From Alphaproteobacteria bacterium (GTDB taxonomy: Bacteria > Pseudomonadota > Alphaproteobacteria > GCA-2731375), in contig CBDDPY010000002.1 in the NCBI GenBank assembly GCA_965232515.1, positions 1,280,001 to 1,344,000 of the forward strand: a stretch of 64,000 bases of DNA. Direction: 5' to 3'. Each line of letters opens with the position of its first letter. Position 1 is the first letter of the stretch. This document shows, one piece after another, positions 7,433 to 61,563 of this stretch. The position numbers were made by a program, and so were the translations under genes. The notes under the pieces are model-generated. The model was not told where the DNA came from. It saw only the letters and a program-made list of their open reading frames with translations, and made no database searches.

Positions 7433-7444
7433 CCGCCGATGCCG

Positions 7445-11626: not shown

Positions 11627-11648
11627 TTCGTGAACCGGTGCAATCCGA

Positions 11649-11705: not shown

Positions 11706-11994
11706 GGTACGTCTCCTAGGGTGTCGTTCGGTCGCTCGCAGCCGCTACGTGGCGATTAGTGCTTTGCGGTACAAGTGACATTGTTACGACAACGGGCGCA
11801 CCGACGCTTTCTTCCCCAAGGTTAATGCCGAGGCGGAAATTTTTTGCTAACCGTGTGGCGCGGAATCCCGGCATTTGCAGGCAGTTAGCCGACTTCGCGC
11901 CATTTGTACGCGACGCCAGGGCGGCAACACGCCAAGCCGGTAAAATGTTGTTACCAACTCTTGCAAATGCCCAAACGGGCAACGCTTCCGGACG

Positions 11995-12396: not shown

Positions 12397-12413
12397 GACA
12401 TTCGCTCCTTTGG

Positions 12414-12800
12414 CTAAGCTTTGGCGGCGTTGACCTCGATCTCGACCAGGAAGTCCGGGCTGGCGAGGCCGGCGACGATCAGCAGTGTCGAGGCCGTGCG
12501 GACGTCGCCCATGACCTCGTCGCGGAGGCCCCGGAAGGCGCCGATGTCGGCCGGGTTGGTGAGAAACACGGTGAGCTTGACCACGTCCTCGAGACCCATG
12601 CCGGCGCTGGCGAGCACGCCCTTGATGTTGTCGAAGGCGGTGCGGCACTGGGCCTCGAAGCCCTGCTGGATCGTGCCGTCCGGCGCCATGCCGATCTGGC
12701 CGGACACGAACAAGTGACGCAGGTCGGACGCCGTTTCGACGCCCTGGGCATAGTTGCTGGCCGGCTTGGTGATGTTGTCGGGATTGTGGAGCTTATGCAT
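12414..12800 (-). CDS. RidA/YjgF family protein
   Basis: Motifs LFVSGQIG, DVVKLTVFL, TASTLLIV, LVEIEV. Confidence 0.85.
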   Translation of the reverse strand: MHKLHNPDNITKPASNYAQGVETASDLRHLFVSGQIGMAPDGTIQQGFEAQCRTAFDNIKGVLASAGMGLEDVVKLTVFLTNPADIGAFRGLRDEVMGDVRTASTLLIVAGLASPDFLVEIEVNAAKA

Positions 12801-12827
12801 GTCGGAACCCCCAAGGGAATGAGTGGG

Positions 12828-13880
12828 TTAGGGAATGATCTTCATATCGCGGAACTGCTGAAAGATGCGCAGGAACATGTCGTCCGTGCGCAGACAGTCG
12901 TGAAAGCCGTGCAGACGCAGCTTCAGCGTGTCGGTCATGACGTCCCAGTCCGTGTTGAAGACATAATCGCCGAACGGCCAGGCTGCCATTTGATCGTACG
13001 GATAGGATCGGAGACCGTGTTTCTCGACGATCTCGGCCCAGAGCGGCGCTTTGTCGGCCATGAATTCGGTCAGCGGGATCTTCTGCGGCTCGCCATACGG
13101 CATGTCGAAGAAGTCGGCGAAGGCGGGCCAGACATTCTTCCAGCGGAAGAAATCGCCGTTGGTGATGTTGAAGACCTCGTTGGCGCCGCCGGGATCGGTG
13201 CCGCACCAGACCATGGCCTTGGCCAGATGGTCGGCGTCGCAGACCTGGTAGACCGCCTCATAGGCACCTGGCGAGCCGGGGAACCGCAGCGGCAGGCCAA
13301 GATGCTTTGAGATCGCCGCATAGACGGCGATGACCATGGTGATGTTCATCGGGTTGCCGAGCGCGAAGCCGCAGACCGTTTGCGGCCGGAGCGCCGACCA
13401 GGTCCAGTCCTTGCCCGCTTGCGCGCCGCGCAGCCACATTTCCTGGTCGTAGTAGAAGTTCGGCAGCATATGCGGCGGGTCGTCCTCGCGCGCCGGCGTT
13501 TTAAACGGTCCGAGATGGCTGCCGTACCACTTGTTGCCCTCGACCAGATGCACGTGCCGCAGACCCGGCGCGACGGCTTCGATAGCCTCGACCGCGTTCA
13601 CCAGCAGCGCCAGGTTCGGCGCATTGTGCTCGGCCCAGGTCGGGGCGGGCAGGAAGGCGGCATAGAAGATGTGTGTGGCTTCAACCAGGCCGGCGAGCTT
13701 GGCCATGGCCTGGTCGCGCTCCAGCAGGTCGACCGAGATGAATTCCGCCCGCGTATCGAAGTCGGGCGGCCGGCGCGACAGGCCGACGATATCCCAGTCG
13801 TCGCGCGGCTCGAGATAGCTCACCAGGTTACGGCCGATGACGCCGAGCGCCCCGACCACGACCGCCTTCTTGTCTGCCAT
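12828..13880 (-). CDS. Atypical SDR, progesterone 5-beta-reductase/iridoid synthase (PRISE)-like
   Basis: Motifs GALGVIG, GLSRR, GNKWYG, PNFYYDQE, WSALRP, FNITNGD. Confidence 0.8.
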   Translation of the reverse strand: MADKKAVVVGALGVIGRNLVSYLEPRDDWDIVGLSRRPPDFDTRAEFISVDLLERDQAMAKLAGLVEATHIFYAAFLPAPTWAEHNAPNLALLVNAVEAIEAVAPGLRHVHLVEGNKWYGSHLGPFKTPAREDDPPHMLPNFYYDQEMWLRGAQAGKDWTWSALRPQTVCGFALGNPMNITMVIAVYAAISKHLGLPLRFPGSPGAYEAVYQVCDADHLAKAMVWCGTDPGGANEVFNITNGDFFRWKNVWPAFADFFDMPYGEPQKIPLTEFMADKAPLWAEIVEKHGLRSYPYDQMAAWPFGDYVFNTDWDVMTDTLKLRLHGFHDCLRTDDMFLRIFQQFRDMKIIP

Positions 13881-18104: not shown

Positions 18105-19366
18105 CACTGTTGTCCGGTTTAGCCATGGGTGAAGTTGATTTTGAGCTGGCCATTGGATTTGGGCTTGTCGGGCGGTGGGTCGAAGAGGTGGGCGAGCGGC
18201 CTGCGCTGGAAGCTCGTCTTGGCGACCAGTCGGGCGATGGCTTGGAGCCCAAGGCTGGTGCCGGTTCTGATCTGGGCCAGACGCAGCAGCAGATAAGCGA
18301 TCAGCGCGGTGAGGATCTGGATGCGCACGGCATTCTCGTTGCTGCCCAGGAAGTGCCGGATCTTCAGGTTCTGCTTGATCCACTTGAAGAACAGCTCGAT
18401 CTGCCAGCGTTGTTTGTAAAGCGTGGCGATCTCGCTGGCCGGCGCCGTCAGATCGTTGCTGACGAGCGTGATCTCGCGGCCGCTGTCGATCACCACGCGG
18501 ACCAGCCGGACCGGCTTGTCGAACGGGTTCCGGCGGTTGCGCGCCAGCCGTTCGGACAATCGCACGACCTGATCAGCCCGCACCGGCCCCTCGGCCGCCA
18601 GCGGCCGGGTCTCGATCAGCCGCACCGGCGAATTGCGCTTTAGCCGGGTGACGAACCGGCAACCGCGAGCATCGAGCGCGGCCCAGAAGCCGAAGTCGTA
18701 GTAGCCCTTGTCGAACACATAGGTGGCGCCGGCCTCAAGCGGGAAGCGCTTGGCCGGCGTGATGTCGTTGACCTGGGCCGAGGTCACGGCAAAACACACC
18801 GGCCCCGCTACCTGCGGGTCGTAGACCACGTGCAGCTTCACACAGCCATCGGCCTGCCAGCTGCTGATCCGCTTGCCGACCACGACCCGGGTCGCATCGA
18901 TCAACCGCAGCATCTCCCGGCGGCAACGCCCCGACACCTGCTGGTCCAACTGCGCCACCAGCGCCTGCAACACAGCCTCGAACAACGCCACAGGCCGCTG
19001 CCGATTGGCATCCGACAAGGTCGACCGCCGCACCGGCTTCAGACCCAGATGTGCATGACTGCCCGGAAACCGCTCCATCGCGCCGACCACCTCGCGCAGA
19101 GACTGCGACCCCGACAGCTGCGCAAACACCATGCTCAGAAACTGCGTCCAGCAGGGCAGACGCCGTACCCGGTGGTCGGCTCCGTGAGCGGTGACAAACT
19201 TTTCAAACCGCCAGCGCGGAAAGGCCTTCATCAAGCCGCCGAAAACCGTATCCTGATAGCGCATGGCTTGGGCTCCTCACCGAGCTTCAATTCAACCGAT
19301 CGTTCCCAAAATCAGTTGAATCCAAGCCATGCAGCCTGTCCACAAATTCTAAACCGGACAACAGTG
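18105..19366 (-). mobile_element. Complete IS4-family insertion sequence (1262 bp)
   Basis: Perfect 18-bp terminal inverted repeats CACTGTTGTCCGGTTTAG (18105-18122) and CTAAACCGGACAACAGTG (19349-19366); 9-bp direct repeats GGTCAAGCC at 18096-18104 and 19367-19375. Confidence 0.93.
18119..19264 (-). CDS. IS4-family DDE transposase
   Basis: LIDAT, VFDKGY and YKQRWQIELFFKWIKQ (YREK signature); the stop codon lies inside the terminal repeat. Confidence 0.93.
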   Translation of the reverse strand: MRYQDTVFGGLMKAFPRWRFEKFVTAHGADHRVRRLPCWTQFLSMVFAQLSGSQSLREVVGAMERFPGSHAHLGLKPVRRSTLSDANRQRPVALFEAVLQALVAQLDQQVSGRCRREMLRLIDATRVVVGKRISSWQADGCVKLHVVYDPQVAGPVCFAVTSAQVNDITPAKRFPLEAGATYVFDKGYYDFGFWAALDARGCRFVTRLKRNSPVRLIETRPLAAEGPVRADQVVRLSERLARNRRNPFDKPVRLVRVVIDSGREITLVSNDLTAPASEIATLYKQRWQIELFFKWIKQNLKIRHFLGSNENAVRIQILTALIAYLLLRLAQIRTGTSLGLQAIARLVAKTSFQRRPLAHLFDPPPDKPKSNGQLKINFTHG

Positions 19367-19464: not shown

Positions 19465-21546
19465 TCACCCAGACCGCAGATATTTGACGGCGGCGTCGCG
19501 TTCGAAGAGGTAGAGCAGAACGCGGAGCGCCTGGCCGCGCGGGCCCTGCAGATCCGGGTCGGTTTCGAGCACCAGCCGGCAGTCGTCGTGGGCCACCTGC
19601 ATGAGGTCGCGATGGGCGTCGAGATCGGCGAGGCGGAAGGACGGCAGGCCGCTCTGGCGGGTGCCGAGCACTTCGCCGGCACCGCGCAGGCGCATATCTT
19701 CCTCGGCGATGACGAAGCCGTCGTCGGTCTCGCGCATGGTGCGGATGCGCGCCCGCGCCGTCTCGGTCAATGGGTCCGTGTAGAGCAGGAGGCAGGTGCC
19801 GGGCCGGCCGCCACGGCCGACGCGGCCGCGCAACTGGTGCAACTGCGCGAGGCCGAAGCGCTCGGCGTGCTCGATCACCATGACGGTGGCTTCGGGAACG
19901 TCGACGCCGACCTCGACGACCGTGGTGGCGACCAGAATGCGGATGTCGCCGGCGGTAAAGGCGTCCATGACCGCGTCCTTTTCCGGCCCTTTCATGCGGC
20001 CGTGCACCAGGCCCACGATCTCACCGAAGACCTGACGAAGGGCGGCGTAGCGGTCCTCGGCGGCGGCGAGGTCGAGGGTGTCGGATTCCTCGACCAGCGG
20101 ACAGACCCAGTAGACGCGGGCGCCGTCGGCCAGCACCCGGCGCAGGCCCTCGACGATTTCGCCCAGCCGCGACAGCGGCATGGAGCGCGTGTCGACGGGC
20201 GCGCGGCCCGGCGGTTTCTCGTCCAACTTCGAGACGTCCATGTCGCCATAGGCCGTCAGCGTCAGCGTGCGCGGGATCGGCGTCGCGGTCATGACCAGCA
20301 CGTCGACAGCCTTGCCCTTGGCGCCGAGCAGCAGGCGCTGGTGCACGCCGAAGCGGTGCTGCTCGTCGATCACGACCATCGCCAGGTCGCGGAATTCGAC
20401 GGCCTCCTGGAACAGCGCATGGGTGCCGACGGCGATCGCGGCCTCGCCATTGGCGATGCGCGCCAGCACTTCCTCGCGCGCCTTGCCCTTCAACCGGCCG
20501 GTCAGCAGCACGATTTCGACGCCGGCGGCGGCGCAGAGCGGCGTCAAGGTCTCGAGATGCTGCCTTGCCAGGATCTCGGTCGGCGCCATCAGGGCGGCCT
20601 GGGCACCGCCTTCGACCGCTATCAGCATGGCCATCAACGCGACCACGGTCTTGCCGCTGCCGACGTCGCCCTGCAAGAGCCGCAGCATGCGCGACGAACC
20701 CGCCATATCGGCCGAAATCTCGGCAAGCGTCCGGGTTTGCGCCGAGGTCAGCGCGTAGGGCAGGGCGGCCGCGACCTTGGCGCGCAGCCGGCCGTCGCCC
20801 TCGATCCTGCGGCCGGCGAGCCGTCGCATCTGCGCCCGCACCAGGGCCAGCGCCAACTGGTTCGCCAGCAGCTCGTCATAGGCCAGGCGCTGCCGCGCGG
20901 CATGGGTCGGCTCCAGATCGGTCTCCGTCTCCGGCGCGTGCGCCCGCCGCAATGCCGTACGCCAGTCGGCCCAGTCCTGCCGCTGCCGCCAGGCCGGGTC
21001 CTGCCACTCCGGCAGTTCGGGCAGCTCGGCCAGCGCGGCCGTGACGGCGCGCGTCAGCGGCTTCGGCGTCAGGCCCTCGGTCAGGCGGTAGACCGGCTCG
21101 ACCAGGGGCAGGCTGGCGAATTCCTCGACCGGCACCACATGGTCGGGGTGCGGCATTTGCGGCCGGTCGTTGAAATAGGCCATGCGGCCACTGACCACCC
21201 GCGTCGCGCCGATGGGCAGCAGCTCGTTGAGGTAGTCCGCCCGGGCATGGAAGAACACAAGCGTCAGCGTGCCGCTGTCGTCGAAACACTCGACCCGGTA
21301 GGGCACGCGGCGGTTCGGCGGCGGCTGGTGCCGGTCGACCCGCACGGTGAGGGTGACCATGGCGCCGTCGGGCGCATTCGCAACCGACGGGCGGAAGCGG
21401 CGGTCGACGATACCGACCGGAAGGTGCCAACAGAGATCGATCAGCCGGGGACCGGCCACCTTTTCGATCAGCTTAGCGATGCGCGGCCCGACACCCTTCA
21501 GCGTCGTGGTCTGGCGGAACAGCGGCGAGAGAATATCGGGGCGCAT
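19465..21546 (-). CDS. recG: ATP-dependent DNA helicase RecG
   Basis: Motifs RLLQGDVGSGKT, DEQHRFGV, MTATPIPRTL, GLAQLHQLRGRVGRG, DGFVIAEEDMRLRG. Confidence 0.97.
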   Translation of the reverse strand: MRPDILSPLFRQTTTLKGVGPRIAKLIEKVAGPRLIDLCWHLPVGIVDRRFRPSVANAPDGAMVTLTVRVDRHQPPPNRRVPYRVECFDDSGTLTLVFFHARADYLNELLPIGATRVVSGRMAYFNDRPQMPHPDHVVPVEEFASLPLVEPVYRLTEGLTPKPLTRAVTAALAELPELPEWQDPAWRQRQDWADWRTALRRAHAPETETDLEPTHAARQRLAYDELLANQLALALVRAQMRRLAGRRIEGDGRLRAKVAAALPYALTSAQTRTLAEISADMAGSSRMLRLLQGDVGSGKTVVALMAMLIAVEGGAQAALMAPTEILARQHLETLTPLCAAAGVEIVLLTGRLKGKAREEVLARIANGEAAIAVGTHALFQEAVEFRDLAMVVIDEQHRFGVHQRLLLGAKGKAVDVLVMTATPIPRTLTLTAYGDMDVSKLDEKPPGRAPVDTRSMPLSRLGEIVEGLRRVLADGARVYWVCPLVEESDTLDLAAAEDRYAALRQVFGEIVGLVHGRMKGPEKDAVMDAFTAGDIRILVATTVVEVGVDVPEATVMVIEHAERFGLAQLHQLRGRVGRGGRPGTCLLLYTDPLTETARARIRTMRETDDGFVIAEEDMRLRGAGEVLGTRQSGLPSFRLADLDAHRDLMQVAHDDCRLVLETDPDLQGPRGQALRVLLYLFERDAAVKYLRSG

Positions 21547-21646: not shown

Positions 21647-21919
21647 ATGAACGACGATTCCGAGATCCGGCGCAAGCGCCTGAGATACCGTAGCTGGCAC
21701 CGGGGCACCAAGGAGCTCGACATGTTTTTCGGCGCCTTTGCCGACAAGCATCTCGACGAGCTCACCGACGCGCAGGTCGACCGCTACGAGGCCATCATCG
21801 AGCAGGACGAGCATGCCATTTACGGCTGGCTGGTGCGCCGGCAGCCGGTGCCGCCGGAGCTGGACAACGACGTCATGCGGATGATCCTGAACTTCAAGTT
21901 CGAACCGACGGGAAGTTGA
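21647..21919 (+). CDS. sdhE: Succinate dehydrogenase FAD assembly factor
   Basis: RRKRLRYRSWHRGTKELD (RGxxE motif); position between recG and mfd. Confidence 0.9.
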   Translation: MNDDSEIRRKRLRYRSWHRGTKELDMFFGAFADKHLDELTDAQVDRYEAIIEQDEHAIYGWLVRRQPVPPELDNDVMRMILNFKFEPTGS

Positions 21920-24900
21920 CGGACATCGACCGCATATTGGCCGGCGCCGGGCGGGTCACGGTCGCGGGCGCGCCGGAGGGGCTCGACGGGCGGATCATCG
22001 CGCGGCTGGCGGCGGATGCGGCCGGCGGCATGCTGCACATCGCGCGCGACGATGCGCGAATGGCGGCGTTGGCGCAGTCCATTGGCTTTTTCGCGCCCGA
22101 TCTCGAGGTTCTGCGCCTGCCGGCCTGGGACTGCCTGCCGTACGACCGCGTGTCGCCGAACGGCGAGGTGTCGGCGCAGCGCATGGACGCGTTGGCGCGC
22201 CTCGCCGCGCGGGCCGAAACCGGTGCGACGGCGCCGTTCGTGCTGCTGACGACGGTCAACGCCGCAGTGCAGCGGGTGCCGGCGCGCGACTTGCTACGCG
22301 ACGCGACCCTGCGGACGCGGGTGGGCGAGACGCTCGACCTCGACGTGCTGCTGAACTTCCTGGTGCGCAACGGCTTCACGCGCACCGGCACGGTCATGGA
22401 GGCGGGCGAGTTCGCGACGCGCGGCGGTATCATCGACATCTTTCCACCGGGCGCGGAATCGCCGTTGCGGCTCGATTTCTTCGGCGACACGCTGGAGACG
22501 ATCCGGGTATTCGATCCGCTGACCCAGCGCACCATCGGCAAACAGAACAGCATCGATCTGGTGCCGGTGTCGGAGGTGCTGCTGACCGAGGAAACCATCA
22601 CGCGTTTCCGCAGCGGCTATCGGGCGTTGTTCGGCGCGGTGACCGACGACGATCCACTCTATACCGCCGTGTCCGAGGGCCGAAAGCATATCGGCATGGA
22701 GCACTGGCTGCCGCTCTACCACGAGCGTCTCGAGAGCGTGTTCGACTATCTGCCGGACGCGATGCTGAGCCAGGACCATCTGGTCGACGAGGCGCGCGAG
22801 GCCAGGCTGACGCAGATCCAGGAGCACTACGACGCCCGCGCCGAGGCGGCCGAGACCCGCAGCTACGGCCAGGCGCCGATCTACAAGCCGGTGCCGCCGG
22901 ACCGGCTCTATCTGCTGGACGAGGAATGGCGCACGACGACCGGCGGCCGGCGCATCGCCGCCTTCACGCCGTTCCAGGTGCCGCCCGGCGACAACGTGGC
23001 TGACGCCGGCGGCCGGCAGGGCCGCAAGTTCACGGCCGAGCGGGCGCAGGACGACGTCAATGTGTTCGACGCGCTGCGCGGCCATATCGAGGCGCAACGC
23101 AAGCAGGGGCGCCGCATCGTCGTCGCCGGCTACAGCACCGGTTCGGCCGACCGCCTGAGCCTGGTGCTGCAGGATCACGGTATCGACCGTCTGACGCCCG
23201 CCGCCGACGGACCGGCCGTCGAGGCCTTGCCGCCCGACGCGATCGGCCTGGTGGTGCTGCCGCTGGAAGACGGCTTCGAGACCGACGACCTGACGGTGAT
23301 CGGCGAGCAGGACATCCTGGGCGACCGGCTGGTCCGGGCCCAGCGCCGCAGCCGCCGCGCCGAGGACATGATCAGCGAGGTCGCCGAGTTGGCGACCGGC
23401 GACCTGGTGGTGCATGTCGAGCACGGCATCGGCCGCTACGAGGGCCTGCAAACGATCGACGTGGGCGGCGCGCCGCACGACTGCCTACACGTCACGTATG
23501 ACGGCGGCGACAAGCTCTACGTGCCGGTCGAGAATATCGAGGTGTTGTCGCGCTACGGTTCGGAGAACCTGAGCGTGCCGCTGGACCGGTTGGGCGGGGC
23601 CGGCTGGCAGGCGCGCAAGTCACGGCTGAAGCAGCGTATCCGGGATATCGCCGAGCAGTTGATCAAGGTGGCGGCTGCCCGCGAGCTGAAATCGGCGATC
23701 AAGATCCAGCCGCCGGACGGCATGTTCGACGAATTCTGCGCCCGCTTTCCCTATGAGGAGACCGAGGACCAGACCAACGCCATCGGCGATGTGTTCGCGG
23801 ACCTCGACCGCGGCCGGCCGATGGACCGGCTGGTCTGCGGCGACGTCGGCTTCGGCAAGACCGAGGTGGCGCTGCGCGCGGCTTTCGCGGCGGTGATGAC
23901 GGGCGGGCAGGTGGCGGTGGTGACGCCGACGACGCTGCTGTCGCGCCAGCACTACCAGACCTTCACGGACCGGTTCGCCGGCATGCCGGTCAAGGTGCGG
24001 CAACTGTCGCGCATGGTGCCGACGAAAGAAGCGAACGAGACCCGCGGCGGGCTCACGAGCGGCGACGTCGATATCGTCATCGGCACGCATGCACTGCTGG
24101 CCAAGTCTGTCAGCTTCAAGAGCCTGACCCTGCTGATCGTCGACGAGGAACAGCATTTCGGCGTCACGCACAAGGAGCGCCTGAAGCAGCTGAAGGCGAA
24201 CGTGCATGTGCTGACGCTGTCGGCGACGCCGATCCCGCGCACGCTGCAGCTCGCCATGAGCGGCGTCAAGGAGTTGAGCCTGATCGCGACGCCACCGGTC
24301 GACCGCCTTGCCGTGCGCACCTTCGTGCTGCCGTTCGACGAGGTGGTGGTGCGGGAGGCGGTGCTGCGGGAGCATTATCGCGGCGGCCAGACCTTCTATG
24401 TCTGCCCGCGCATCAGTGACCTGCCCGAGGCCGAGCAGTTCCTGCGCGAGCACGTGCCGGAAGTGAAATATGTGGTCGCGCACGGCCAGATGCCGCCGAC
24501 GCAGCTGGAAGACGTGATGAGCCGGTTCTACGACGGCGGCTACGATGTGCTGATCTCGACCACGATCATTGAATCCGGGCTGGATATTCCGTCGGCCAAC
24601 ACCATGGTCGTGCACCGCGCCGACATGTTCGGCCTGGCCCAGCTCTATCAGCTGCGGGGCCGCATCGGACGATCCAAGGTGCGGGCCTATGCCTATTTCA
24701 CGCTGCCGCCGCGCAAGACGCCGACGGCGAACGCCGAGAAGCGCCTCAAGGTGCTGCAGTCGCTGGACACGCTGGGCGCCGGGTTCAGCCTGGCGAGCCA
24801 CGATCTCGACATCCGCGGCGCCGGCAACCTGCTGGGCGAGGAGCAGTCCGGGCACATCCGCGAGGTCGGCCTGGAGCTCTATCAGCAGATGCTGGAAGAA

Positions 24901-25422
24901 GCCGTCGCGGTGGCCAAGGGTGGCGAGGCGGCGGACGACGCCGACGTCGGCTGGTCGCCGCAGATCAATATCGGCACCGCGGTGTTGATCCCGGAGCGCT
25001 ATGTCGCAGACCTCAATGTGCGGCTGGGGCTTTACCGCCGGCTCGGCCACCTGGAAGACCAGGCCGAGATCGACGGCTTCGCGGCCGAACTGATCGACCG
25101 GTTCGGGCCGCTGCCGACCGAGGTCGAGCACCTGCTGCAGATCGTCGCCATCAAGCGGCTCTGCCGACAGGCCAATGTCGAAAAGCTGGAGGCCGGGCCG
25201 AAGGGCGCGACGCTGGCCTTCCGCAACGACTCGTTCGCCGATCCCGCCGGGCTCGTCGGCTTCATCAACGAGCAGGCCGGCACGGCGAAGCTACGGCCGG
25301 ACCACCGGCTGGTCTACATGCGGCAATGGGACGAGGCGGACGACCGCCTGAAAGGCGCGCACGATCTGGTGCGGCGGCTGGCCAAGCTGGCTCAGTCGCC
25401 GGCGGCTTCCTCGGCAGCCTGA
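21916..25422 (+). CDS. mfd: Transcription-repair coupling factor
   Basis: Motifs LPYDRVSP, RGGIIDIF, GDLVVHVEHGIGRY, CGDVGFGKTEV, DEEQHFGV, HDLDIRGAGNLLG; 1168 aa. Confidence 0.97.
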   Translation: MTDIDRILAGAGRVTVAGAPEGLDGRIIARLAADAAGGMLHIARDDARMAALAQSIGFFAPDLEVLRLPAWDCLPYDRVSPNGEVSAQRMDALARLAARAETGATAPFVLLTTVNAAVQRVPARDLLRDATLRTRVGETLDLDVLLNFLVRNGFTRTGTVMEAGEFATRGGIIDIFPPGAESPLRLDFFGDTLETIRVFDPLTQRTIGKQNSIDLVPVSEVLLTEETITRFRSGYRALFGAVTDDDPLYTAVSEGRKHIGMEHWLPLYHERLESVFDYLPDAMLSQDHLVDEAREARLTQIQEHYDARAEAAETRSYGQAPIYKPVPPDRLYLLDEEWRTTTGGRRIAAFTPFQVPPGDNVADAGGRQGRKFTAERAQDDVNVFDALRGHIEAQRKQGRRIVVAGYSTGSADRLSLVLQDHGIDRLTPAADGPAVEALPPDAIGLVVLPLEDGFETDDLTVIGEQDILGDRLVRAQRRSRRAEDMISEVAELATGDLVVHVEHGIGRYEGLQTIDVGGAPHDCLHVTYDGGDKLYVPVENIEVLSRYGSENLSVPLDRLGGAGWQARKSRLKQRIRDIAEQLIKVAAARELKSAIKIQPPDGMFDEFCARFPYEETEDQTNAIGDVFADLDRGRPMDRLVCGDVGFGKTEVALRAAFAAVMTGGQVAVVTPTTLLSRQHYQTFTDRFAGMPVKVRQLSRMVPTKEANETRGGLTSGDVDIVIGTHALLAKSVSFKSLTLLIVDEEQHFGVTHKERLKQLKANVHVLTLSATPIPRTLQLAMSGVKELSLIATPPVDRLAVRTFVLPFDEVVVREAVLREHYRGGQTFYVCPRISDLPEAEQFLREHVPEVKYVVAHGQMPPTQLEDVMSRFYDGGYDVLISTTIIESGLDIPSANTMVVHRADMFGLAQLYQLRGRIGRSKVRAYAYFTLPPRKTPTANAEKRLKVLQSLDTLGAGFSLASHDLDIRGAGNLLGEEQSGHIREVGLELYQQMLEEAVAVAKGGEAADDADVGWSPQINIGTAVLIPERYVADLNVRLGLYRRLGHLEDQAEIDGFAAELIDRFGPLPTEVEHLLQIVAIKRLCRQANVEKLEAGPKGATLAFRNDSFADPAGLVGFINEQAGTAKLRPDHRLVYMRQWDEADDRLKGAHDLVRRLAKLAQSPAASSAA

Positions 25423-38217: not shown

Positions 38218-39135
38218 ATGACCAGCTATTCCTATTTCACCGTTGACGTATTCACCGACGAGGTGTTCGGCGGCAATCCGCTGGCGGTGTTTCCGCACGC
38301 GGAGGGCCTGAACGACCGGCAGATGCAGACAGTGGCGCGCGAGCTGAACCTGTCGGAAACGACCTTCGTGTTCCCGCCCGACAATCCGGCGCATACCTGC
38401 AAGGTGCGGATTTTCACGCCGGGTGCGGAGCTGCCCTTCGCCGGCCATCCGACGCTCGGCACGGCGCATGTGCTGGTCAGCAACGGCGACATCGCCGCCA
38501 ATGGCGATACGACCGAGGTCGTGTTCGAGGAAGGCGTGGGGCCGGTGCCGGTGAAGGTTTCGCGGCAGTCGGCGGACCTGACCTTCGCGCAACTCTCGGT
38601 GTCAAAGCTGCCGGATTTCGGACCGCCGGCTCCGTCGCGCGACGATCTGGCTTCTGTCCTGTCGACTTCACCCAACGACATATCGGCCGACGCGCCGATC
38701 CAGGCCGTGTCCTGCGGCGTGCCGTTCCTGTTCGTGCCGGTCAGCGGCCTCGACGCCATGGCCCGGCTGCAGCCCAATATGGCGCGCTGGACCGATGTGC
38801 TGGGCGACTTTTGGGCGACCGAGGTGTTTGCCTTGACCCGCGAGACGGTGAACGAGGGTTCCAATGTCCATGCCCGGATGTTCGGGCCGATGATCGGGAT
38901 CACCGAAGACCCGGCGACCGGCGGCGCGGCCGCCGCGCTCGGCGGCTATCTCGGCGTGCGGGAAGGCCCCGAGACCGGTACCGCGCGTTGGCGGGTAGAG
39001 CAGGGGATCGAGATGGGGCGGCCGAGCTTCCTCGACGTTGAGACCGACAAACAGGCCGGCGAGATCACGGCCGTGCGGGTCGGCGGCGCGACGGTGCCGG
39101 TCAGCCGCGGCGAGATGGACATTCCCGCAATCTGA
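38218..39135 (+). CDS. PhzF-family isomerase/epimerase
   Basis: Motifs VDVFT...GGNPLAV, LNLSETTF, ELPFAGHPT, EDPATG, EQGIEMGRPS. Confidence 0.92.
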   Translation: MTSYSYFTVDVFTDEVFGGNPLAVFPHAEGLNDRQMQTVARELNLSETTFVFPPDNPAHTCKVRIFTPGAELPFAGHPTLGTAHVLVSNGDIAANGDTTEVVFEEGVGPVPVKVSRQSADLTFAQLSVSKLPDFGPPAPSRDDLASVLSTSPNDISADAPIQAVSCGVPFLFVPVSGLDAMARLQPNMARWTDVLGDFWATEVFALTRETVNEGSNVHARMFGPMIGITEDPATGGAAAALGGYLGVREGPETGTARWRVEQGIEMGRPSFLDVETDKQAGEITAVRVGGATVPVSRGEMDIPAI

Positions 39136-40302: not shown

Positions 40303-40494
40303 CCGCCGGTCACACGCCCTTGAAGTCTCTCATCTGGTCGATTGATCGCGAAAACTTGATGAAATCAGTCTGTTTTCTTCAGGTATTTACCTCCGGTCGA
40401 CACTAGCTAACGCGCCAAGCTGGAGCGATGTGATGGAACCGCGAGTTCCGTTACGTCGTTGTCTACAGCGTCCTGGATTACTGGGAGAGCATTG

Positions 40495-41154
40495 ATGGGA
40501 TTGCAGCTGGGCGACGTTGCCCCGAATTTCACGGCCGAAACCACGCAGGGACCGATTAGCTTCCATGATTGGATCGGCGACGGCTGGGCCGTGCTGTTTT
40601 CACACCCGAAGGACTTCACGCCGGTCTGCACGACCGAGCTCCAGTCGATGGTCCGTCTGGAGCCGGCATTCGCCCGGCGCAACGTCAAGATCATCGGCCT
40701 GAGCGTCGATACGGTTGACGAGCACGTCAAGTGGATTGAGGACATCAAGGCATTCACCGGCCTGGAGCCGAGCTATCCGCTGATTGGCGACCACGACCTC
40801 GCCATCGCCAAGCTCTACGGCATGCTGGACGCGCGCGCCCGCGGTCACGCCGATGGCCGGACCGCGGCCGACAATGCAACGGTACGCAGCGTGTTCGTGA
40901 TCGGCCCGGACAAGCGGATCGAGCTGACGATCAATTACCCCATGAGCACGGGCCGGAACTTCGACGAGATCCTGCGGGTCATCGACTCGCTGCAGTTGAC
41001 CGCCAACTACAGCGTGGCGACGCCGGCCAACTGGCACTCGGGCGAGGACGTGGTCATCCCGCCGACGGTGAGCGACGAAGCGGCCTGGGAAATCTTCCCC
41101 TGGGGCTGGCGGGCGCCGCGACCTTATATGCGCTACGTCGCCTGCCCGCGCTAA
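40495..41154 (+). CDS. 1-Cys peroxiredoxin (Prx6 type)
   Basis: Motifs LFSHPKDFTPVCTTE, YPMSTGRNFDEILR, VATPANW. Confidence 0.93.
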   Translation: MGLQLGDVAPNFTAETTQGPISFHDWIGDGWAVLFSHPKDFTPVCTTELQSMVRLEPAFARRNVKIIGLSVDTVDEHVKWIEDIKAFTGLEPSYPLIGDHDLAIAKLYGMLDARARGHADGRTAADNATVRSVFVIGPDKRIELTINYPMSTGRNFDEILRVIDSLQLTANYSVATPANWHSGEDVVIPPTVSDEAAWEIFPWGWRAPRPYMRYVACPR

Positions 41155-46403: not shown

Positions 46404-47036
46404 ATGAAGCTGTACGATTTTCACTTGGCGCCGAACCCGAAGCGCGTACGCATCTTTCTCGCCGAGAAGGGTATCGAGGTGCCGAAGGTCGAGATCAACA
46501 CGCGCGAGGCCGGGCAATTCTCGCCTGAATTCCTGAAGGTCAATCCGGGCGCGACCATTCCGGCCCTGGAGCTGGATGACGGCACCTGCATCTCGGAGAC
46601 CGTGGCGATCTGCCGCTATTTCGAGGAGGTTCAGCCCGAGCCGCCGCTGATGGGGGTCGACGCCAAGGACAAGGCCGTCGTCGAAATGTGGAGCCGGCGC
46701 TGCGAGCTGGAAGGCTTCATGGCAATCGGCGAGGCGGTGCGCAACGGCTTGCCGATGTTCGAGGATCGGGGTCTGGCCGGCATGCGGAGCGGCGTGCCGC
46801 AGATCCCAGCGCTGGTCGAGCGCGGCAAAGCCACGGCGACGCGGTTCTGCAAGAAGCTGGACGCCCAGCTCGCCGACAACGAGTTCATCGCGGGACCTCG
46901 CTTCACGATCGCGGACATCACGGCTTTCGTGATGTTCGGGTTCGCGAGCCGCATCGAGTTCGCCATGCCCGAGGACTGCACGAACATCAAACGCTGGTTC
47001 GACGCGGTGGCGGCGCGGCCGAGCGCCGACGCCTGA
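46404..47036 (+). CDS. Glutathione S-transferase family protein
   Basis: Motifs APNPKRVRIFLAEKGI, IPALELDDG..ISETVAI, FTIADI. Confidence 0.92.
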   Translation: MKLYDFHLAPNPKRVRIFLAEKGIEVPKVEINTREAGQFSPEFLKVNPGATIPALELDDGTCISETVAICRYFEEVQPEPPLMGVDAKDKAVVEMWSRRCELEGFMAIGEAVRNGLPMFEDRGLAGMRSGVPQIPALVERGKATATRFCKKLDAQLADNEFIAGPRFTIADITAFVMFGFASRIEFAMPEDCTNIKRWFDAVAARPSADA

Positions 47037-55977: not shown

Positions 55978-56661
55978 CTAATCCGCGTTGGTAGTCTTGG
56001 GGACGCCGTGACGAACGATTGTCAGCAGCAGCAGGCCGAGCAGCGTGCCGTTCAGGATATGCCAGACGAAGTGCGTGCCGAGCGGCCAGACCACACACAG
56101 CGGTTCGTCGATCGTTCGGAAGGTGAGCGAGACGGCGAACAGGGCGGCGGCGAGCAGGAGGCCGCGGCCGGCGGGCGCGCCCTTCGCGGCGAGCAGCGCG
56201 CCGCAGATCGCCAGCGCCAGGAACGCCGGCAGATACCCGGTGCTGCCGCGCAGGGCATCGCCGAACAGGAAACCGGCGCCCGCGGTGATCGCGAATGACG
56301 CCGGTATGTAGGCCAAGCCGATGACGACCGACATGGGCCATCCCAAACCGAAGAAACGCCGCAACGCAACAATCAGGTAGCTGACGATAAACAAGAAGAT
56401 CGGCAGCACGTCGGCGATGCCGGCCCAGCGCGTCGCGAGTGTGTGAAACAGGAACGAGCCGGTGCCGATGGCAAACACGAGCGCCACCAGCAACTGCACC
56501 GACGCGTCGAAACGACCGGCTCGGCGGGCCGCGATCAGCCCGACGACGGCCGCGATGATGAAGGCCGCGTTGGTGACGGCGTTGACCGGCTCGGACCAGA
56601 AGCCGAAATCCGTCCGCTCGCAATAGGCGTCGACCTGGACGGACAGCGACGACTGTTCCAT
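55978..56661 (-). CDS. Ceramidase-like (CREST superfamily) membrane hydrolase
   Basis: Motifs YCER...SEPVNAVTN, GSFLFH, D, HFVWH; about seven hydrophobic segments. Confidence 0.8.
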   Translation of the reverse strand: MEQSSLSVQVDAYCERTDFGFWSEPVNAVTNAAFIIAAVVGLIAARRAGRFDASVQLLVALVFAIGTGSFLFHTLATRWAGIADVLPIFLFIVSYLIVALRRFFGLGWPMSVVIGLAYIPASFAITAGAGFLFGDALRGSTGYLPAFLALAICGALLAAKGAPAGRGLLLAAALFAVSLTFRTIDEPLCVVWPLGTHFVWHILNGTLLGLLLLTIVRHGVPKTTNAD

Positions 56662-56686
56662 CTCCGCCCCCGCGCGTGACCGGCGT

Positions 56687-57646
56687 TCAGCTTCCGGGGA
56701 TGGTCAGCACCGCCTTGCCATCGAAGGTCCGCTCCATGAGGTCGCGGGCCTGACCGGCAACCTCGGACCAATCGGTCACCCGGTCAATGCGGCAGTCGAG
56801 GCGGTCCGCTTCCAGGAAACCCAACAGGCGCGGGAACGCGTCTACCGGCGGCTCTATCTCGCTGGTGGCGTAGAGGTGCAGGCCACGGAGCGATGCGCGC
56901 CCATGCATGAACAAGTCAGTGATGGGCAACGCGACCTCGGGGCTGCCGGAAATTCCATAGGTCACGCAGATGCCGTCCTTGTCGAGCGCCTTCACCGCGT
57001 TCGCCAAGAGGGCGCCGCCAATGGAATCCATGGCGAAACGGAACGGCCCGTTCTCCGCGAAGCTGCCGCCGTCGTCGGTGACCAGCACCTCGTCGGCGCC
57101 GAGCGCGCGGGCGAAGATGGCTTTCTCGGCCGAACGGACCTGCGCCGTTACGTGCGCGCCGGCGTGCTTGGCGAGCTGGATCGCGAACATGCCGACGCCG
57201 CCCGAGGCGCCGGTGATCAGCGCCTTGCGGCCGAGGAGCGCGTGCGCGGTGTCGATGCAATGGAGCGCGGTCAGACCGGCGACCGGCAGGGTCGCCGCCT
57301 GTTCGAACGTCACGGCGTCGGGCAGCGGCGCCAGGTCCGAGGTCGGCAGGTAGACCCGTTCGGCCCAACCTTCCATCCGGCGGCAGAAGCCGACGACGCG
57401 CGTACCTTCGGCGGGTCCGCTGCCGTCGGCTGCCGGCGTCTCGACCGTGCCGGCGATGTCCCAGCCGACCGTGTTGCCGGCCTCGGCTGCGTTCATGGCG
57501 CGCTTCACCTCGCCGCGATTGAGCGAGAAGGCGGCGATACGGACCAGGGCCTCGTTCGTTGCCGGCGCTCTGAGCGCGATCTCAGCCACGCGCAGGCCGT
57601 CGCCGCCCGGATCCGTCACCACCGCCCGCACCTGTTCACCCGTCAT
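56687..57646 (-). CDS. MDR-family (quinone oxidoreductase-like) dehydrogenase
   Basis: Motifs SLNRGE, GWDIAG, AATLPVAGLTA, ITGASGGVG. Confidence 0.88.
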   Translation of the reverse strand: MTGEQVRAVVTDPGGDGLRVAEIALRAPATNEALVRIAAFSLNRGEVKRAMNAAEAGNTVGWDIAGTVETPAADGSGPAEGTRVVGFCRRMEGWAERVYLPTSDLAPLPDAVTFEQAATLPVAGLTALHCIDTAHALLGRKALITGASGGVGMFAIQLAKHAGAHVTAQVRSAEKAIFARALGADEVLVTDDGGSFAENGPFRFAMDSIGGALLANAVKALDKDGICVTYGISGSPEVALPITDLFMHGRASLRGLHLYATSEIEPPVDAFPRLLGFLEADRLDCRIDRVTDWSEVAGQARDLMERTFDGKAVLTIPGS

Positions 57647-57723
57647 GCCGACACTCCCCAAAATTCATCGTCAAACGAACCGTCACCAACATCTAGCCAC
57701 AACCACGCACGACGCAAGGCCCG

Positions 57724-58800
57724 TCATTCGGCCGCGACGCCGGAGACGGCTTGCAGCGCCCGACGGAATCCGCCGAAGCGGCGGCGGTAGTCGGTCGGCG
57801 TGATGCCGACCTTGCGCCGGAACAGACGCCGGAAGAAGCTCGCGTCCTCGTAGCCGACCTCGTTGGCGACGGCTTCGACGGCGATGTCCGACGTCTCCAG
57901 CAGCTGCTTCGCCTCTTCGAGGCGCAGGGTATGCACGTAATCCATGGGCGACAGGCCGGTGACACTGGCGAAGCGGCGCTTGAACGACCGCTCCGCCATC
58001 CCGCTGCGCCGGACCATGGCCGCGACGGGGGACGAGGTCGTGTAGTTCTCGGCGATCCATTCCTGACAGGCGGCGATCGTCGCGTCTTCGACCTGCTGCG
58101 CGCCAGACAACGCAGCAAAGGGCAGCTGGCCATGGCGGTGCCAGTCCATCAGATAAACCCGCGCCAGACGCATGGCTTCCTCCAGCCCGAGGAAGCGCGC
58201 GATCAGGAACAGCGCCAGGTCCTGCCACGAGGTGCCGCCGCCCGATGTGATCACCCGCTGGCCGTCGCCGGTGGCGACCAGTACACGGGCCGGGTGCACC
58301 TTGACCTTGGGATAGCGGCGGGCGAGGCCGTCGCAATAGCCCCAATGCGTGGTGGCATCGCGGTCGTCGAGCAGCCCGGCCTCCGCCAGCAACAAGGTGC
58401 CGGAGCAGGCCGCCGCGAGCGTCGCGCCCTGGGCCTCGCGCTGTCGCAGCCAGCCGATGGCAGCATCGTAGCGGCCGGCAATGTCCTCGCCCGGTGCGAC
58501 GAATAGATCGGACACGCAGATCAGCTCGGCCGACGGGCAGGTCTCGAAGCTGTAATCCGGCTGCACCCAGATGCCGTTGGCGGCGCGAAAACGTCGACCG
58601 TCCGGCGACACGACGATGGGCCGGGCCTTCGATGGCCCCGGCTTGCCGGTAACGAGGAAATCCCAGTCCCGCCCTGCAGAGGCGAACAACTCGAACATGC
58701 CGTAGAGCGTGCCCGCCGTGGTTTCGGGAAGGGCGAGCAGCGCCACCGTCAGCGGCGTTGCACATTCCGGCTCGATTGCCGCCTTGTCCAGCTCAGTCAT
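57724..58800 (-). CDS. GlxA-type AraC regulator (DJ-1/PfpI domain plus AraC HTH)
   Basis: Motifs ACSG..LLAEAGLL...ATTHW, ERSFKRRF, VGYEDASFFRRLF. Confidence 0.92.
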   Translation of the reverse strand: MTELDKAAIEPECATPLTVALLALPETTAGTLYGMFELFASAGRDWDFLVTGKPGPSKARPIVVSPDGRRFRAANGIWVQPDYSFETCPSAELICVSDLFVAPGEDIAGRYDAAIGWLRQREAQGATLAAACSGTLLLAEAGLLDDRDATTHWGYCDGLARRYPKVKVHPARVLVATGDGQRVITSGGGTSWQDLALFLIARFLGLEEAMRLARVYLMDWHRHGQLPFAALSGAQQVEDATIAACQEWIAENYTTSSPVAAMVRRSGMAERSFKRRFASVTGLSPMDYVHTLRLEEAKQLLETSDIAVEAVANEVGYEDASFFRRLFRRKVGITPTDYRRRFGGFRRALQAVSGVAAE

Positions 58801-58904
58801 GGCAGAATCGACCTGTTCTTGTCCGAAATGACTTTAGCATCATCACCCACCCGGCGATAGAAACCCCGCCAGGTGGGGAACCCATTCGAACCGGGACTTA
58901 AGAC

Positions 58905-59996
58905 ATGACAGTCATTCCGCAAGAGACCACCGCATTCGACACTGATCGCATGGCCGCCTTCGAAGAACGCCTGGTGTCGGCTTTCAACGAATCGGCCTTC
59001 AGCCTGATGGCCTCCATCGGCCATCGGACGGGCCTGTTCGAGTCCCTCAACGGCGCGCCGCCGCTGACCAGCGCCGAGATCGCCGCGCGGGCCGGCCTGC
59101 AGGAGCGCTACGTCCGCGAGTGGCTTGGCGCCATGGTCGCGGCCGATGTGGTCGAGCACGACGGCGACGCCGGCACCTATCGCCTGCCGGCGGAGCACGC
59201 GGCCCTGCTGACCGACGCGGGCGAGGCCAATCTGGCCGTGTTCGCGCAATACATCCCACAGCTCGGCGCCGTCGAGGACGATATCATCGCCTGCTTCCGT
59301 AACGGCGGCGGTGTGCCATACGAGCGGTTCCATCGCTTCCATGAGATCATGGCGGAGGACAGCGGCCAGACCGTGCTGCCGGCGCTGATCGATCACATAA
59401 TTCCGTTGGCGCCCGATCTGCGCGGGCGATTGGAAACGGGCATCGACGTGCTGGACGTCGGCTGCGGCCGGGGCCGGGCGCTGATGCTGCTGGCCGAAAC
59501 CTTCCCCTACAGCCGCTTCACCGGCTACGACCTGTCAAAGGACGCAACGGATTGGGCCCGGGCCCAGGCGGCCGAACGCGACCTGGCGAACGTGACGTTC
59601 GTCGCCCGCGACGTCAGCGATTTCGACGAGACCGCCGCCCAGGAAGCGTTCGACTTCGTGACCACGTTCGACGCGGTGCACGATCAGGCGAAGCCGCTCA
59701 ACGTATTGACGGGCATTCGACGCTCGTTGCGGAAGGGCGGCGTCTATCTGGCCCAGGACATCAAGGGTTCGAGCCACCACCATCACGACCGCGACCACCC
59801 GCTCGGCACGCTGCTCTACACGGTGTCCTGCATGCACTGCATGACAGTCTCGCTGGCCCAGGGTGGCGAGGGGCTGGGCGCCATGTGGGGGCGTGAGGTG
59901 GCCGAACGATACTTCCGTGACGCCGGTTTCGGCAACATCGAGGTGCACGAGCTGGAGCACGACATCCAGAACTACTACTACGTCTGCCGGCCTTAA
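58905..59996 (+). CDS. Class I SAM-dependent methyltransferase with N-terminal winged helix
   Basis: Motifs IGHRTGLF, ERYVREWL, VLDVGCGRG, FDAVHD, GLGAMWG. Confidence 0.88.
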   Translation: MTVIPQETTAFDTDRMAAFEERLVSAFNESAFSLMASIGHRTGLFESLNGAPPLTSAEIAARAGLQERYVREWLGAMVAADVVEHDGDAGTYRLPAEHAALLTDAGEANLAVFAQYIPQLGAVEDDIIACFRNGGGVPYERFHRFHEIMAEDSGQTVLPALIDHIIPLAPDLRGRLETGIDVLDVGCGRGRALMLLAETFPYSRFTGYDLSKDATDWARAQAAERDLANVTFVARDVSDFDETAAQEAFDFVTTFDAVHDQAKPLNVLTGIRRSLRKGGVYLAQDIKGSSHHHHDRDHPLGTLLYTVSCMHCMTVSLAQGGEGLGAMWGREVAERYFRDAGFGNIEVHELEHDIQNYYYVCRP

Positions 59997-60106
59997 CATC
60001 ACCGAGTGCGACGGCGAAGCGGTGCGCATGTGGCGCACCGCTTCGTTGATCGTCAGGACGCAATTTGTTGACGAGAAATTGCTTGTAACGGTTGTTGGGC
60101 GAAATT

Positions 60107-60124
60107 ATGTACCAGGTAGTACAT
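60107..60124. promoter_or_regulatory. Palindromic operator upstream of the peroxiredoxin-like operon
   Basis: ATGTAC-CAGGTA-GTACAT, overlapping the -10 of a possible TTGTAA-N17-TATGTA promoter. Confidence 0.55.
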
Positions 60125-60154
60125 TTGAATCGACACGGACGTTAAGGAGACGAC

Positions 60155-60829
60155 ATGTCGTTGGCGGAAAAGCTTGACGCGCTGCGCGAAGCGGGCGGCA
60201 AGCGCATAGGCGAGGAGAAACGGGTCGTGATGCGCCGCGCGACCGAAGACCTGCGTCAGTCGGGAATTCTCGATGGCGTGGCGAAGGTCGGCGACCGCTT
60301 CCCGGCGTTCGCGCTGAACAACGCCGATGGCGAGCTGGTGCGGTCGTCCGACCTGCTGGCGCGCGGCGCGGTCGTCCTGACGGTCTTTCGCGGCGCCTGG
60401 TGACCCTACTGCAATGCAGAGCTGTATGCTTTGCAGGCTGTCCTGGGGGAACTTGAAGCAAGCGGCGCGAGCCTGGTGGCGCTGACGCCGCATCTGGCCG
60501 AGCACAGCCGCGCCATGCGTCAGAAGCACGGCCTGAACTATCACCTGCTGACCGATCCCGAAAACGCGTACGCGGCGGAGTTGGGCCTCAGGTTTTCGTT
60601 TCCGGACGATCTGCGGGAGATCTACCGCAGCATCAACATCGACCTGCCGCGGTACAATGGCGACGACAGCTGGACGCTGCCCGTGCCGGCGCGGTTCGTG
60701 GTCGATACCGATGGCATCATCCGGGCGGCCGATGTCGATGTCGACTATACCCGGCGGCCGGAGCCGGAAAAGACGTTGGCCGACGTGAAGGCGCTGGGCC
60801 TCGGACCGCTGCCGAATGCGACGGGCTGA
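60155..60829 (+). CDS. AhpC/TSA peroxiredoxin-like protein with in-frame TGA (putative selenocysteine, UPYC motif), 224 aa
   Basis: Track ORFs 60155..60403 and 60431..60829 are one frame: ...VVLTVFRGAW-TGA(60401-60403)-PYCNAELYALQ...; AAGGAG upstream; downstream motifs LLTD..N, WTLPVPARFVVD, DYTRRPEP. Confidence 0.88.
60415..60435 (+). promoter_or_regulatory. Candidate bacterial SECIS element
   Basis: UGCAGAGC-UGUAU-GCUUUGCA: an 8-bp stem starting after an 11-nt spacer from the UGA, with a GU-containing loop. Confidence 0.6.
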
Positions 60830-60846: not shown

Positions 60847-61563
60847 ATGAGCATCGATGTGAAGGCGCTGACCTTCGATACGGGCGGCACCATTCTCGAC
60901 TGGCACAGTGGCATCAGCGCCGCACTGGCGAAGGCTGGCGCGGCGCACGGCCTGGACAAGGACTGGCCGGCGATCACCAACGACTACCGGCGTCGGTCGC
61001 TGAAAAAGATGCTGAACGCGGGCGGCGAGACGCCGGCGACGTTCAACATCGACGACGCGCACCGCGAGATGCTGGACGTGGTAATCGCCGAACATAGCCT
61101 CGATGCCTTCACGGCGGCGGACCGCGACGCGATCTGGCGCGCCTGGCACGAACTCGACACCTGGCCGGATTTCCCGGCCGTGCTGCCGAAGCTGCGGGAG
61201 CGCTACACCGTCGCCTCGTTCACGATCCTGAGCGTCTCGCTGATCATCGACACGGCGAAGCGAAACGGTCTCAGCTGGGACGCAGTGATCTCCTGCGAGA
61301 TGATCGGCACCTACAAGATCAGGCCCGAGGCCTATCGCACGGCCGCCAAGTGGCTGGTGCGCGAACCGAGCGAGATCCTGATGGTGGCCTGCCACAACTT
61401 CGATCTGGACGCCGCCCGGGAGGTCGGTTTCAGGACCGCCTTCGTGCGCCGGCCCGACGAGTGGGGCGCCGAGGGCGCCCCCGATCCCGATCCCAATCCG
61501 GCCTGCGACATCGTTGCCGACGACTTCCCCGACCTTGCCCGACAACTGGGCGTTCAAATCTAA
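60847..61563 (+). CDS. Haloacid dehalogenase type II (HAD superfamily)
   Basis: Motifs ALTFDTGGTILDW, LDTWPD, YKIRPEAY, MVACHNFDL. Confidence 0.88.
   Translation: MSIDVKALTFDTGGTILDWHSGISAALAKAGAAHGLDKDWPAITNDYRRRSLKKMLNAGGETPATFNIDDAHREMLDVVIAEHSLDAFTAADRDAIWRAWHELDTWPDFPAVLPKLRERYTVASFTILSVSLIIDTAKRNGLSWDAVISCEMIGTYKIRPEAYRTAAKWLVREPSEILMVACHNFDLDAAREVGFRTAFVRRPDEWGAEGAPDPDPNPACDIVADDFPDLARQLGVQI

Follow-up and report, generated by a model that had tools for sequence, protein, structure and literature searches.

The gene at 60155..60829 (+ strand) of the 64,000-nucleotide stretch of contig CBDDPY010000002.1 analyzed here (hereafter the window, meaning the whole of that stretch) encodes a peroxiredoxin-like (Prx-like) protein in which an in-frame TGA codon is most likely read as selenocysteine (Sec, U). 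We put the probability that this is a real selenoprotein gene, functional given Sec machinery elsewhere in the genome, at roughly 0.88. The gene is a further member of a selenoprotein family, Prx-like with a UxxC motif, that has been catalogued since 2004-2008. A first-pass annotation of the window had called it a hidden selenoprotein. It is hidden from gene callers, which cut it in two, but not from the literature, in which the family is known.

The gene consists of two open reading frames (ORFs) joined across a single in-frame stop codon. The upstream ORF (60155-60403, +, 82 aa) ends in ...VFRGAW followed by TGA, and the downstream ORF (60431-60829, +, 132 aa, TTG start) shares its frame. 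The sequence, the ORF list and the translation all agree with the earlier proposal that the two are joined in frame at the TGA at 60401..60403 (+), which is codon 83 and is conserved at the aligned position in relatives. Translation of 60155-60829 with TGA as U gave one 224-aa chain that contains FRGAW-U-PYCNAEL and zero other internal stops. The full coding sequence is 224 codons plus a terminal TGA (60827..60829, +); this stop is genuine, and no hairpin follows it. The sequence shows a Shine-Dalgarno-like AAGGAG (60144..60149, +) at a distance of 5 nt ahead of the ATG.

The read-through product has the AhpC/TSA fold, and its redox centre is U83-P-Y-C86. The second residue of this U-x-x-C centre, Cys86, is encoded by TGC at 60410..60412 (+). 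The Pfam domain AhpC-TSA (PF00578) matched residues 45-191 (3.9e-25; 88.6 bits against a cut-off of 26) and spans the TGA, as does the match to Redoxin (residues 44-200, 4.1e-19). A relaxed screen of the window for in-frame TGA codons recovered this gene, which served as a positive control, together with two ordinary same-frame gene junctions (39133-39135 and 47034-47036), and found no further Sec candidate.

The TGA was present at the aligned codon in every related locus that we retained. We scanned species-representative genomes with an alignment of the window protein and fragments as the query, which gave 94 relatives, of which 80 were kept (designated by L numbers below); counts over 81 sequences are for the window gene plus these 80 loci. 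The 80 loci were 50-91% identical to the window protein. Their record titles are mostly those of Alpha- and Gammaproteobacteria, and also include Hyphomicrobiales, Desulfobulbaceae (among them the isolate Desulfogranum mediterraneum DSM 13871) and Acidobacteriota. TGA occupied the aligned codon in 80/80 loci, within the motif G-x-W-U-P-[YF]-C. Pairwise differences at codon positions 1/2/3 were 0.34/0.285/0.609 before the UGA and 0.335/0.237/0.575 after codon 94. Because these differences are alike on either side, we conclude that both halves evolve as one translated frame. The first-pass annotation had named TGC in close relatives and relaxed selection after the TGA as signs against a selenoprotein, and we saw neither.

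A few of the relatives were irregular. One copy (L057:10001-10363) has a premature in-frame stop at codon 121, from decay or assembly error, and another (L038:2316-3040) runs into a stretch of N. Two contigs carry the titles 'Nitrosopumilus sp.' (L006) and 'Klebsiella pneumoniae' (L075). Their copies group with sequences from proteobacterial metagenome-assembled genomes (MAGs), and these two MAG bins are probably mis-assigned or contaminated.

A hairpin of the selenocysteine insertion sequence (SECIS) type begins directly downstream of the TGA. An 11-nt spacer (60404..60414, +), read from the sequence, separates the UGA from an 8-bp stem with a 5-nt loop at 60415..60435 (+). The 5' arm is TGCAGAGC (60415-60422, +), the loop is TGTAT (UGUAU; 60423-60427, +) and the 3' arm is GCTTTGCA (60428-60435, +), precisely where the first-pass annotation had placed a hairpin with a UGUAU loop. 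The commonest spacer in the family was CCCTACTGCAA, found in 44/81 sequences. As set out in the legend to Fig. 2 of a 2026 review (PMC13188914), the bacterial SECIS (bSECIS) model has a loop of 3-9 nt, a stem of 4-16 bp, a G in the first two loop positions, a distance of 16-37 nt from the UGA to the loop, and a minimum free energy (MFE) of <= -7.5 kcal/mol. The window hairpin has a loop of 5 nt with G at position 2 followed by U, a stem of 8 bp and 19 nt from the UGA to the loop. It folds alone at -10.9 kcal/mol and is also part of the local RNA MFE structure. All of these values lie within the published constraints. Across the family, loop position 2 was G in 81/81 sequences, and the MFE was <= -7.5 in 73/81.

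Comparison among relatives indicated that the hairpin is conserved as RNA. The hairpin, scored as at least 6 of the 8 pairs, was present in the MFE structure of 76/81 sequences. Cells of the helix were paired in 94.1% of cases, compared to 25-59% when the partners were slid by 1-3 columns, and a double change from C-G to U-A occurred at one stem pair in 4 sequences. Over codons 84-94, differences at codon positions 1/2/3 dropped to 0.072/0.063/0.268. The normalised synonymous-codon entropy was 0.41 for the 10 scoreable codons in 84-93 and 0.79 for 67 other conserved codons (Mann-Whitney p = 4e-5). For example, Glu89 was GAG in 81/81 sequences, Leu90, which is six-fold degenerate, was CTG in 81/81, and Ala92 was GCT in 95%.

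The RNA element may also constrain the protein. The codon for Tyr91 (TAT, 60425-60427) lies within the hairpin loop. This residue was Tyr in 75/81 Sec forms and variable (Q, K, E, A, I, N, D) in homologues with Cys, Ser or Trp in place of Sec; the Ser forms (P0003-P0005) do not have the Tyr that the SECIS loop encodes. From this contrast between the Sec forms and the others, the sequence of the SECIS loop seems to dictate residue 91, and the RNA element thereby to constrain the protein.

The hairpin resembles the E. coli fdhF SECIS and the bSECIS consensus in that its stem-loop comes right behind the UGA, within the coding sequence, and its small apical loop has G then U near the start. The fdhF element has the same 11-nt spacing from UGA to stem as the window hairpin, and it has a bulged U in its helix. 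In contrast, the helix in the window is perfect, without a bulged U, and the hairpin has no sequence similarity to a curated RNA family.

Several results weigh against our reading of the gene, and most of them concern the hairpin. A single-sequence fold of 66 nt gave z = -1.69, and 15 of 200 shuffles folded as well. Because this fold is unremarkable, the case for the hairpin rests on comparison. Column shuffles matched the observed values often (207/500 for percent paired and 34/500 for covariation score); covariation is weak and not significant because the element hardly varies. The consensus that RNAalifold gave for the 81 sequences consisted of two small helices (-3.25 kcal/mol) and not of the 8-bp hairpin, and we therefore relied on the per-sequence folds, the slid-control pair counts and the conservation of synonymous sites. 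Rfam at gathering thresholds gave 0 matches over the whole window, and at E <= 10 over 60350-60500 it gave only a chance match to naRNA4 (12.8 bits, E = 3.7), outside the hairpin. At the protein level, no model in NCBIfam release 20.0 matched the protein at its cut-off (the best scored 34.9 bits against 140), and classical peroxiredoxin catalysis is not assured because the proline of the active-site motif is replaced by Arg79. Lastly, ARAGORN found no tRNA in the 64-kb window, and neither NCBIfam models on 52 ORFs nor tblastn with SelA, SelB and Ndh-SelD from locus L060 found selA, selB or selD there. The capacity of the organism to decode Sec is therefore assumed.

The in-frame TGA is very unlikely to mark a pseudogene, an artefact or a gene boundary. 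On this alternative, an ordinary Cys-type gene would have acquired a nonsense mutation, the TGA would stem from an error in sequencing or assembly, or the two ORFs would be separate small genes, and this is how gene callers treat the gene. A search of a large protein collection found 464 relatives. Among the best 120 of these, the full-length proteins were just 42-59% identical, and 25 were fragments of 123-141 aa. Twenty-four of the 25 fragments are C-terminal pieces, 69-92% identical, that start at Leu/Met-Gln right after the hairpin; the remaining one, P0121, terminates in ...FRGHW. These fragments indicate that gene callers repeatedly split the family at one place, as the first-pass annotation had predicted of annotation pipelines, and the many 123-aa C-terminal fragments in the collection show that the family is miscalled on a large scale even now. 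The hairpin of the window, not statistically exceptional when folded by itself, would also fit a broken gene. However, the TGA recurs in 80 independently assembled loci from different phyla, the coding signature is equal on both sides of it, a conserved RNA element follows it, and the break would interrupt a single Pfam domain and a single compact fold that was modelled with high confidence. Based on these observations, we regard a mutation, an error or a pair of small genes as highly improbable, and a Sec codon as the better description of the TGA.

It is also highly improbable that the UGA specifies one of the standard amino acids (Trp, Cys or Gly), through a reassigned code or through near-cognate read-through independent of a SECIS. 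The records of two database proteins, P0009 and P0010, show Trp where Sec would stand (RGKWWPYC); the depositor's pipeline may have translated a TGA with another code, or the codon may be a true TGG. Against this, TGA closes 18 of the window's 43 long ORFs, this gene and 35 of the 81 family genes, which indicates that it is an ordinary working stop in these organisms. In addition, the conserved hairpin with its invariant loop G is a requirement of Sec insertion, and genes for tRNA-Sec, selA, selB and selD lie beside the homologue in several relatives.

A gene for tRNA-Sec (anticodon TCA, found with ARAGORN) ends 32-143 nt upstream of the homologue in 6/80 loci (L050, L052, L055, L060, L061 and L072). 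In L060 (L060:5123-13345) the order is selA, selB, an esterase-like gene, tRNA-Sec, the Prx-like gene, and an Ndh-SelD fusion gene on the opposite strand; selA scored 588.5 bits to TIGR00474 and selB scored 419.2 bits to TIGR00475. Searches with tblastn, using these L060 proteins and covering 10 kb around the homologues, found selA and selB in 6/80 loci and the Ndh-SelD fusion in 6/80, with a weaker match to the SelD domain only in L023. At least one of selA, selB and selD was within 10 kb in 7/80 loci, and none of them was in 73/80. The compact cluster of Sec machinery with the Prx-like gene belongs to a gammaproteobacterial subclade (L060; L050, L052, L055, L061 and L072, around 9800-13400; and also L035), in which its organization is selA-selB-(x)-selC-prxL-(ndh-selD).

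These data bear on whether the window gene is a recent relic. The gene could be of the Sec type by descent in an organism in which the Sec machinery has been lost or is absent, such that translation stops at codon 83. The 64-kb window has no sel gene or tRNA-Sec, and decay does occur in the family, as seen in the copy with a premature stop at codon 121. Nonetheless, the window gene has no other defect and its hairpin is the family consensus. Compared to the closest relative (L001), the DNA is 86.8% identical over 743 nt and the protein 91% identical, as expected under continuing selection. The sel genes are usually located elsewhere: the 73 relatives without selA, selB or selD within 10 kb resemble the window in this respect. 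We consider a relic unlikely and favor a functional selenoprotein gene.

Homologues in the databases have mostly Cys where the window protein has Sec. We used an alignment of 101 sequences (designated A4) that includes 22 full-length database homologues. In these 22, the Sec column holds Cys in 17, Ser in 3 and Trp in 2. The motif in the 17 Cys homologues is R-G-x-W-C-P-[YF]-C, in agreement with the earlier statements that AhpC/TSA-like proteins have RGxWCPxC at this position and that the TGA should align with Cys or Sec. Together, the Pfam matches across the TGA, the TGA in all 80 loci, the Cys homologues and the fit to the bSECIS model support the proposal of an intact 224-aa Sec-containing peroxiredoxin-like protein. 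Among full-length proteins in the databases, the three Ser forms (P0003, P0004 and P0005; W-S-P-[FY]-C) are the closest relatives, at 57-59% identity. In a quick tree (IQ-TREE with SH-aLRT support only and a midpoint root), the three Ser forms were nested in the Sec clade, a placement that is provisional, and the Cys forms grouped with four Sec forms from Acidobacteriota and Desulfobulbaceae. The position of the Ser forms inside the Sec clade suggests replacement of Sec by Ser.

The family corresponds to Prx-like selenoproteins described from marine metagenomes and bacterial genomes. The existence of UxxC peroxiredoxin-like selenoproteins, which the first-pass annotation had taken as established, is confirmed by the relevant parts of the Sargasso Sea and Global Ocean Sampling (GOS) studies. 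The former reports 22 sequences of a Prx-like selenoprotein family whose UXXC motif is thioredoxin-like. A 2006 survey of bacterial genomes includes, in the portion concerned with these proteins, a 'Prx-like thiol:disulfide oxidoreductase' in Geobacter, Desulfotalea and others. Table 2 of the GOS study (a 2008 metagenome dataset) has an entry Prx-like 1 (pfam00578, UxxC) with 225 selenoproteins and 2,740 Cys homologues, and the section '#Prx-like 1' of its supplementary file 3 has reads with ...VFRGHWUPYCNAELYALQ..., NGD.SWTLP and DPDYT.RPEP. In the text on this family in the 2026 review (PMC13188914), it is described as 'predicted with high confidence', i.e., not experimentally verified.

The window protein has the pfam00578 domain that defines GOS 'Prx-like 1' and its U-x-x-C motif instead of T-x-x-U, and, compared by eye, it carries the same signature as the reads in the file section cited. 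Nothing essential differs; the name covers several subfamilies, and the subfamily assignment is by motif identity. Compared to catalogued Prx-like members, the window copy is in an alphaproteobacterial-type genome of 66.5% G+C, with its own neighbors and a 9-residue C-terminal tail that is common only to L001 and P0002.

The protein is distinct from the Sec-containing peroxiredoxin Prx (TxxU; NCBIfam PrxU). Both have PF00578 and its fold, and both are bacterial selenoproteins with an intragenic SECIS. In Prx (T-x-x-U), as far as the descriptions consulted go, Sec replaces the peroxidatic Cys, whereas in the window protein Sec is three residues earlier and Cys86 is kept. The PrxU model NF040737 did not match the window Prx-like protein at E <= 0.01. 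The same model matches a second, ordinary Cys-type peroxiredoxin in the window (40459-41154) with 73.9 bits, below the cut-off of 270; the best NCBIfam match of that second protein is PRK13189 (197.6 bits, just below the cut-off of 211).

Structure prediction placed the redox centre on a peroxiredoxin-like scaffold. The AlphaFold2 model, made with 101 sequences, had a mean pLDDT (predicted local distance difference test) of 95.6. In the model, residues 3-41 are helical and form a two-helix N-terminal extension, followed by a thioredoxin/peroxiredoxin fold in which strand 72-77 leads to Sec83 and then to helix 84-95, which contains Cys86. The best solved structures in a Foldseek search were 5epf (BcpB), 3drn (Bcp1), 3hjp (Bcp4) and 1xxu/4x0x (AhpE), with E values of about 1e-10 to 1e-12, target TM-scores of 0.77-0.89 and identities of 15-23%. 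The protein thus shares its fold with the BCP/PrxQ and AhpE peroxiredoxins but differs from them in sequence and in its motif, which is R-G-x-W-U-P-Y-C and not P-x-x-x-T/S-x-x-C; in addition, these structures leave helical residues 3-41 uncovered (query TM-score of about 0.5-0.6). By sequence, the protein matched BCP (2cx3) at 4.9e-7, 3kcm of the thioredoxin family at 6.7e-6, and entries for ResA at 9.4e-6 to 7.3e-4. With regard to thiol-disulfide oxidoreductases of the TlpA/ResA type, W-U-P-Y-C falls on W-C-P-P-C of 3kcm, and the fold search ranked peroxiredoxin structures above ResA-type ones.

The Sec residue is not at the peroxidatic position. The first-pass annotation had put the UGA at the redox motif, and it is indeed in the U-x-x-C centre, but Sec falls on the Ser/Thr position of the peroxiredoxin motif and not on the peroxidatic Cys. 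In the alignments, U83 is paired with the Ser of the BCP motif S-P-V-C (2cx3) and, in 3kcm, with the Cys that opens W-C-P-P-C. Cys86, which is invariant in A4, aligns with the Cys of S-P-V-C in 2cx3, i.e., the peroxidatic position. The canonical active-site motif of peroxiredoxins is P-x-x-x-T/S-x-x-C; here, its Pro and Thr/Ser positions are occupied by Arg79 and Sec83, and Arg79 is at least 90% conserved in A4. As to the conserved active-site Arg of canonical peroxiredoxins, Arg180 is nearly invariant in A4, but the alignment to solved peroxiredoxins ended at residue 136, short of Arg180. As to the cis-Pro loop of TlpA/ResA-type oxidoreductases, Pro178 is matched to the Pro of V-P-E-T-F-V-I-D solely by a second stretch of alignment, whose own E-value is not significant.

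As judged from the alignments and the model, the protein appears to combine a thioredoxin-type U-x-x-C redox centre with a peroxiredoxin scaffold. In our view, the UGA at 60401-60403 is very probably read as Sec during translation, and the hairpin at 60415-60435 would act as a bSECIS that recruits SelB carrying Sec-tRNA(Sec), a role suggested by its match to the model and its conservation. Sec83 stands where a thioredoxin-type CxxC has its first, attacking Cys, and Cys86 where peroxiredoxins have the peroxidatic Cys. The selenolate may attack a peroxide or a disulfide substrate, Cys86 would then resolve the intermediate to give an intramolecular selenenylsulfide, and a thioredoxin-type thiol reductant would reduce the selenenylsulfide and regenerate the enzyme. 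A thiol-dependent reductase or peroxidase cycle of this sort is the chemistry that we consider most likely, with about an even chance of being correct.

The gene immediately downstream encodes a type II haloacid dehalogenase (60847..61563, +; TIGR01428, 128.6 bits against a cut-off of 125.4). It starts 17 nt after the stop codon of the Prx-like gene, with no terminator-like site between, making co-transcription plausible at this locus. The operon proposed in the first-pass annotation is to that extent reasonable locally, but the adjacency recurs in only 1/80 loci (L010) and is not found in the closest relative, L001. The pairing is thus not a conserved functional unit, and we rejected a conserved operon with the dehalogenase as a general feature of the family. 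L001 matches the window at 56023-57661 and then at 60071-60813, almost back to back; it does not have the regulator and methyltransferase genes of window positions 57724-59996, and its downstream DNA is unlike that of the window. Because the matches are nearly contiguous in L001, the gene for an FtrA/AraC-type regulator and that for an Rv2258c-like winged helix-turn-helix methyltransferase were either inserted in the window or deleted in L001.

Other features of the window are further from the Prx-like gene. An IS4-family transposase gene (18119-19264; NF033592, 236 bits) adjoins recG (19465-21546) and mfd (21916-25422). Two consecutive pairs of alpha/beta subunit genes (885-4686 and 5375-9948) are caprolactamase/acetophenone-carboxylase-like (hydantoinase-type) and score below equivalog cut-offs.

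The presence of the Prx-like gene within a cluster of sel genes raises a question about what maintains Sec decoding in these bacteria. The 2006 survey of bacterial genomes, in the part that treats the neighborhood of selABC, names fdhA as the usual neighbor. In the parts of the published selenoprotein surveys that we consulted, we found no statement placing the Prx-like family in a sel gene cluster, and a literature search on 'Ndh-SelD' returned only the GOS paper. From one phylum to another the SECIS is nearly identical in nucleotide sequence, so much so that it seems to dictate protein residues (Tyr91, encoded by the loop). Repeated horizontal transfer of a cassette of sel genes plus prxL, with a hairpin matched to its SelB, would fit both this near-identity and the location in sel clusters. 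It is conceivable, though we hold the idea only tentatively and think it rather doubtful, that in some aerobic marine or soil Proteobacteria the Prx-like protein, and not formate dehydrogenase, travels with and sustains the Sec-decoding trait, and that the window copy descends from such a cassette and has since been dispersed.

Annotators should join the two fragments into a single 224-aa protein and assign Sec to residue 83. Two points may be of interest to those who work on selenoproteins: in some Gammaproteobacteria the gene is linked to tRNA-Sec, selA, selB and Ndh-SelD, and the SECIS is conserved in its nucleotide sequence from phylum to phylum. For the organism, the gene implies the use of selenium and the presence of a Sec-dependent thiol redox enzyme, which is nothing new in kind.

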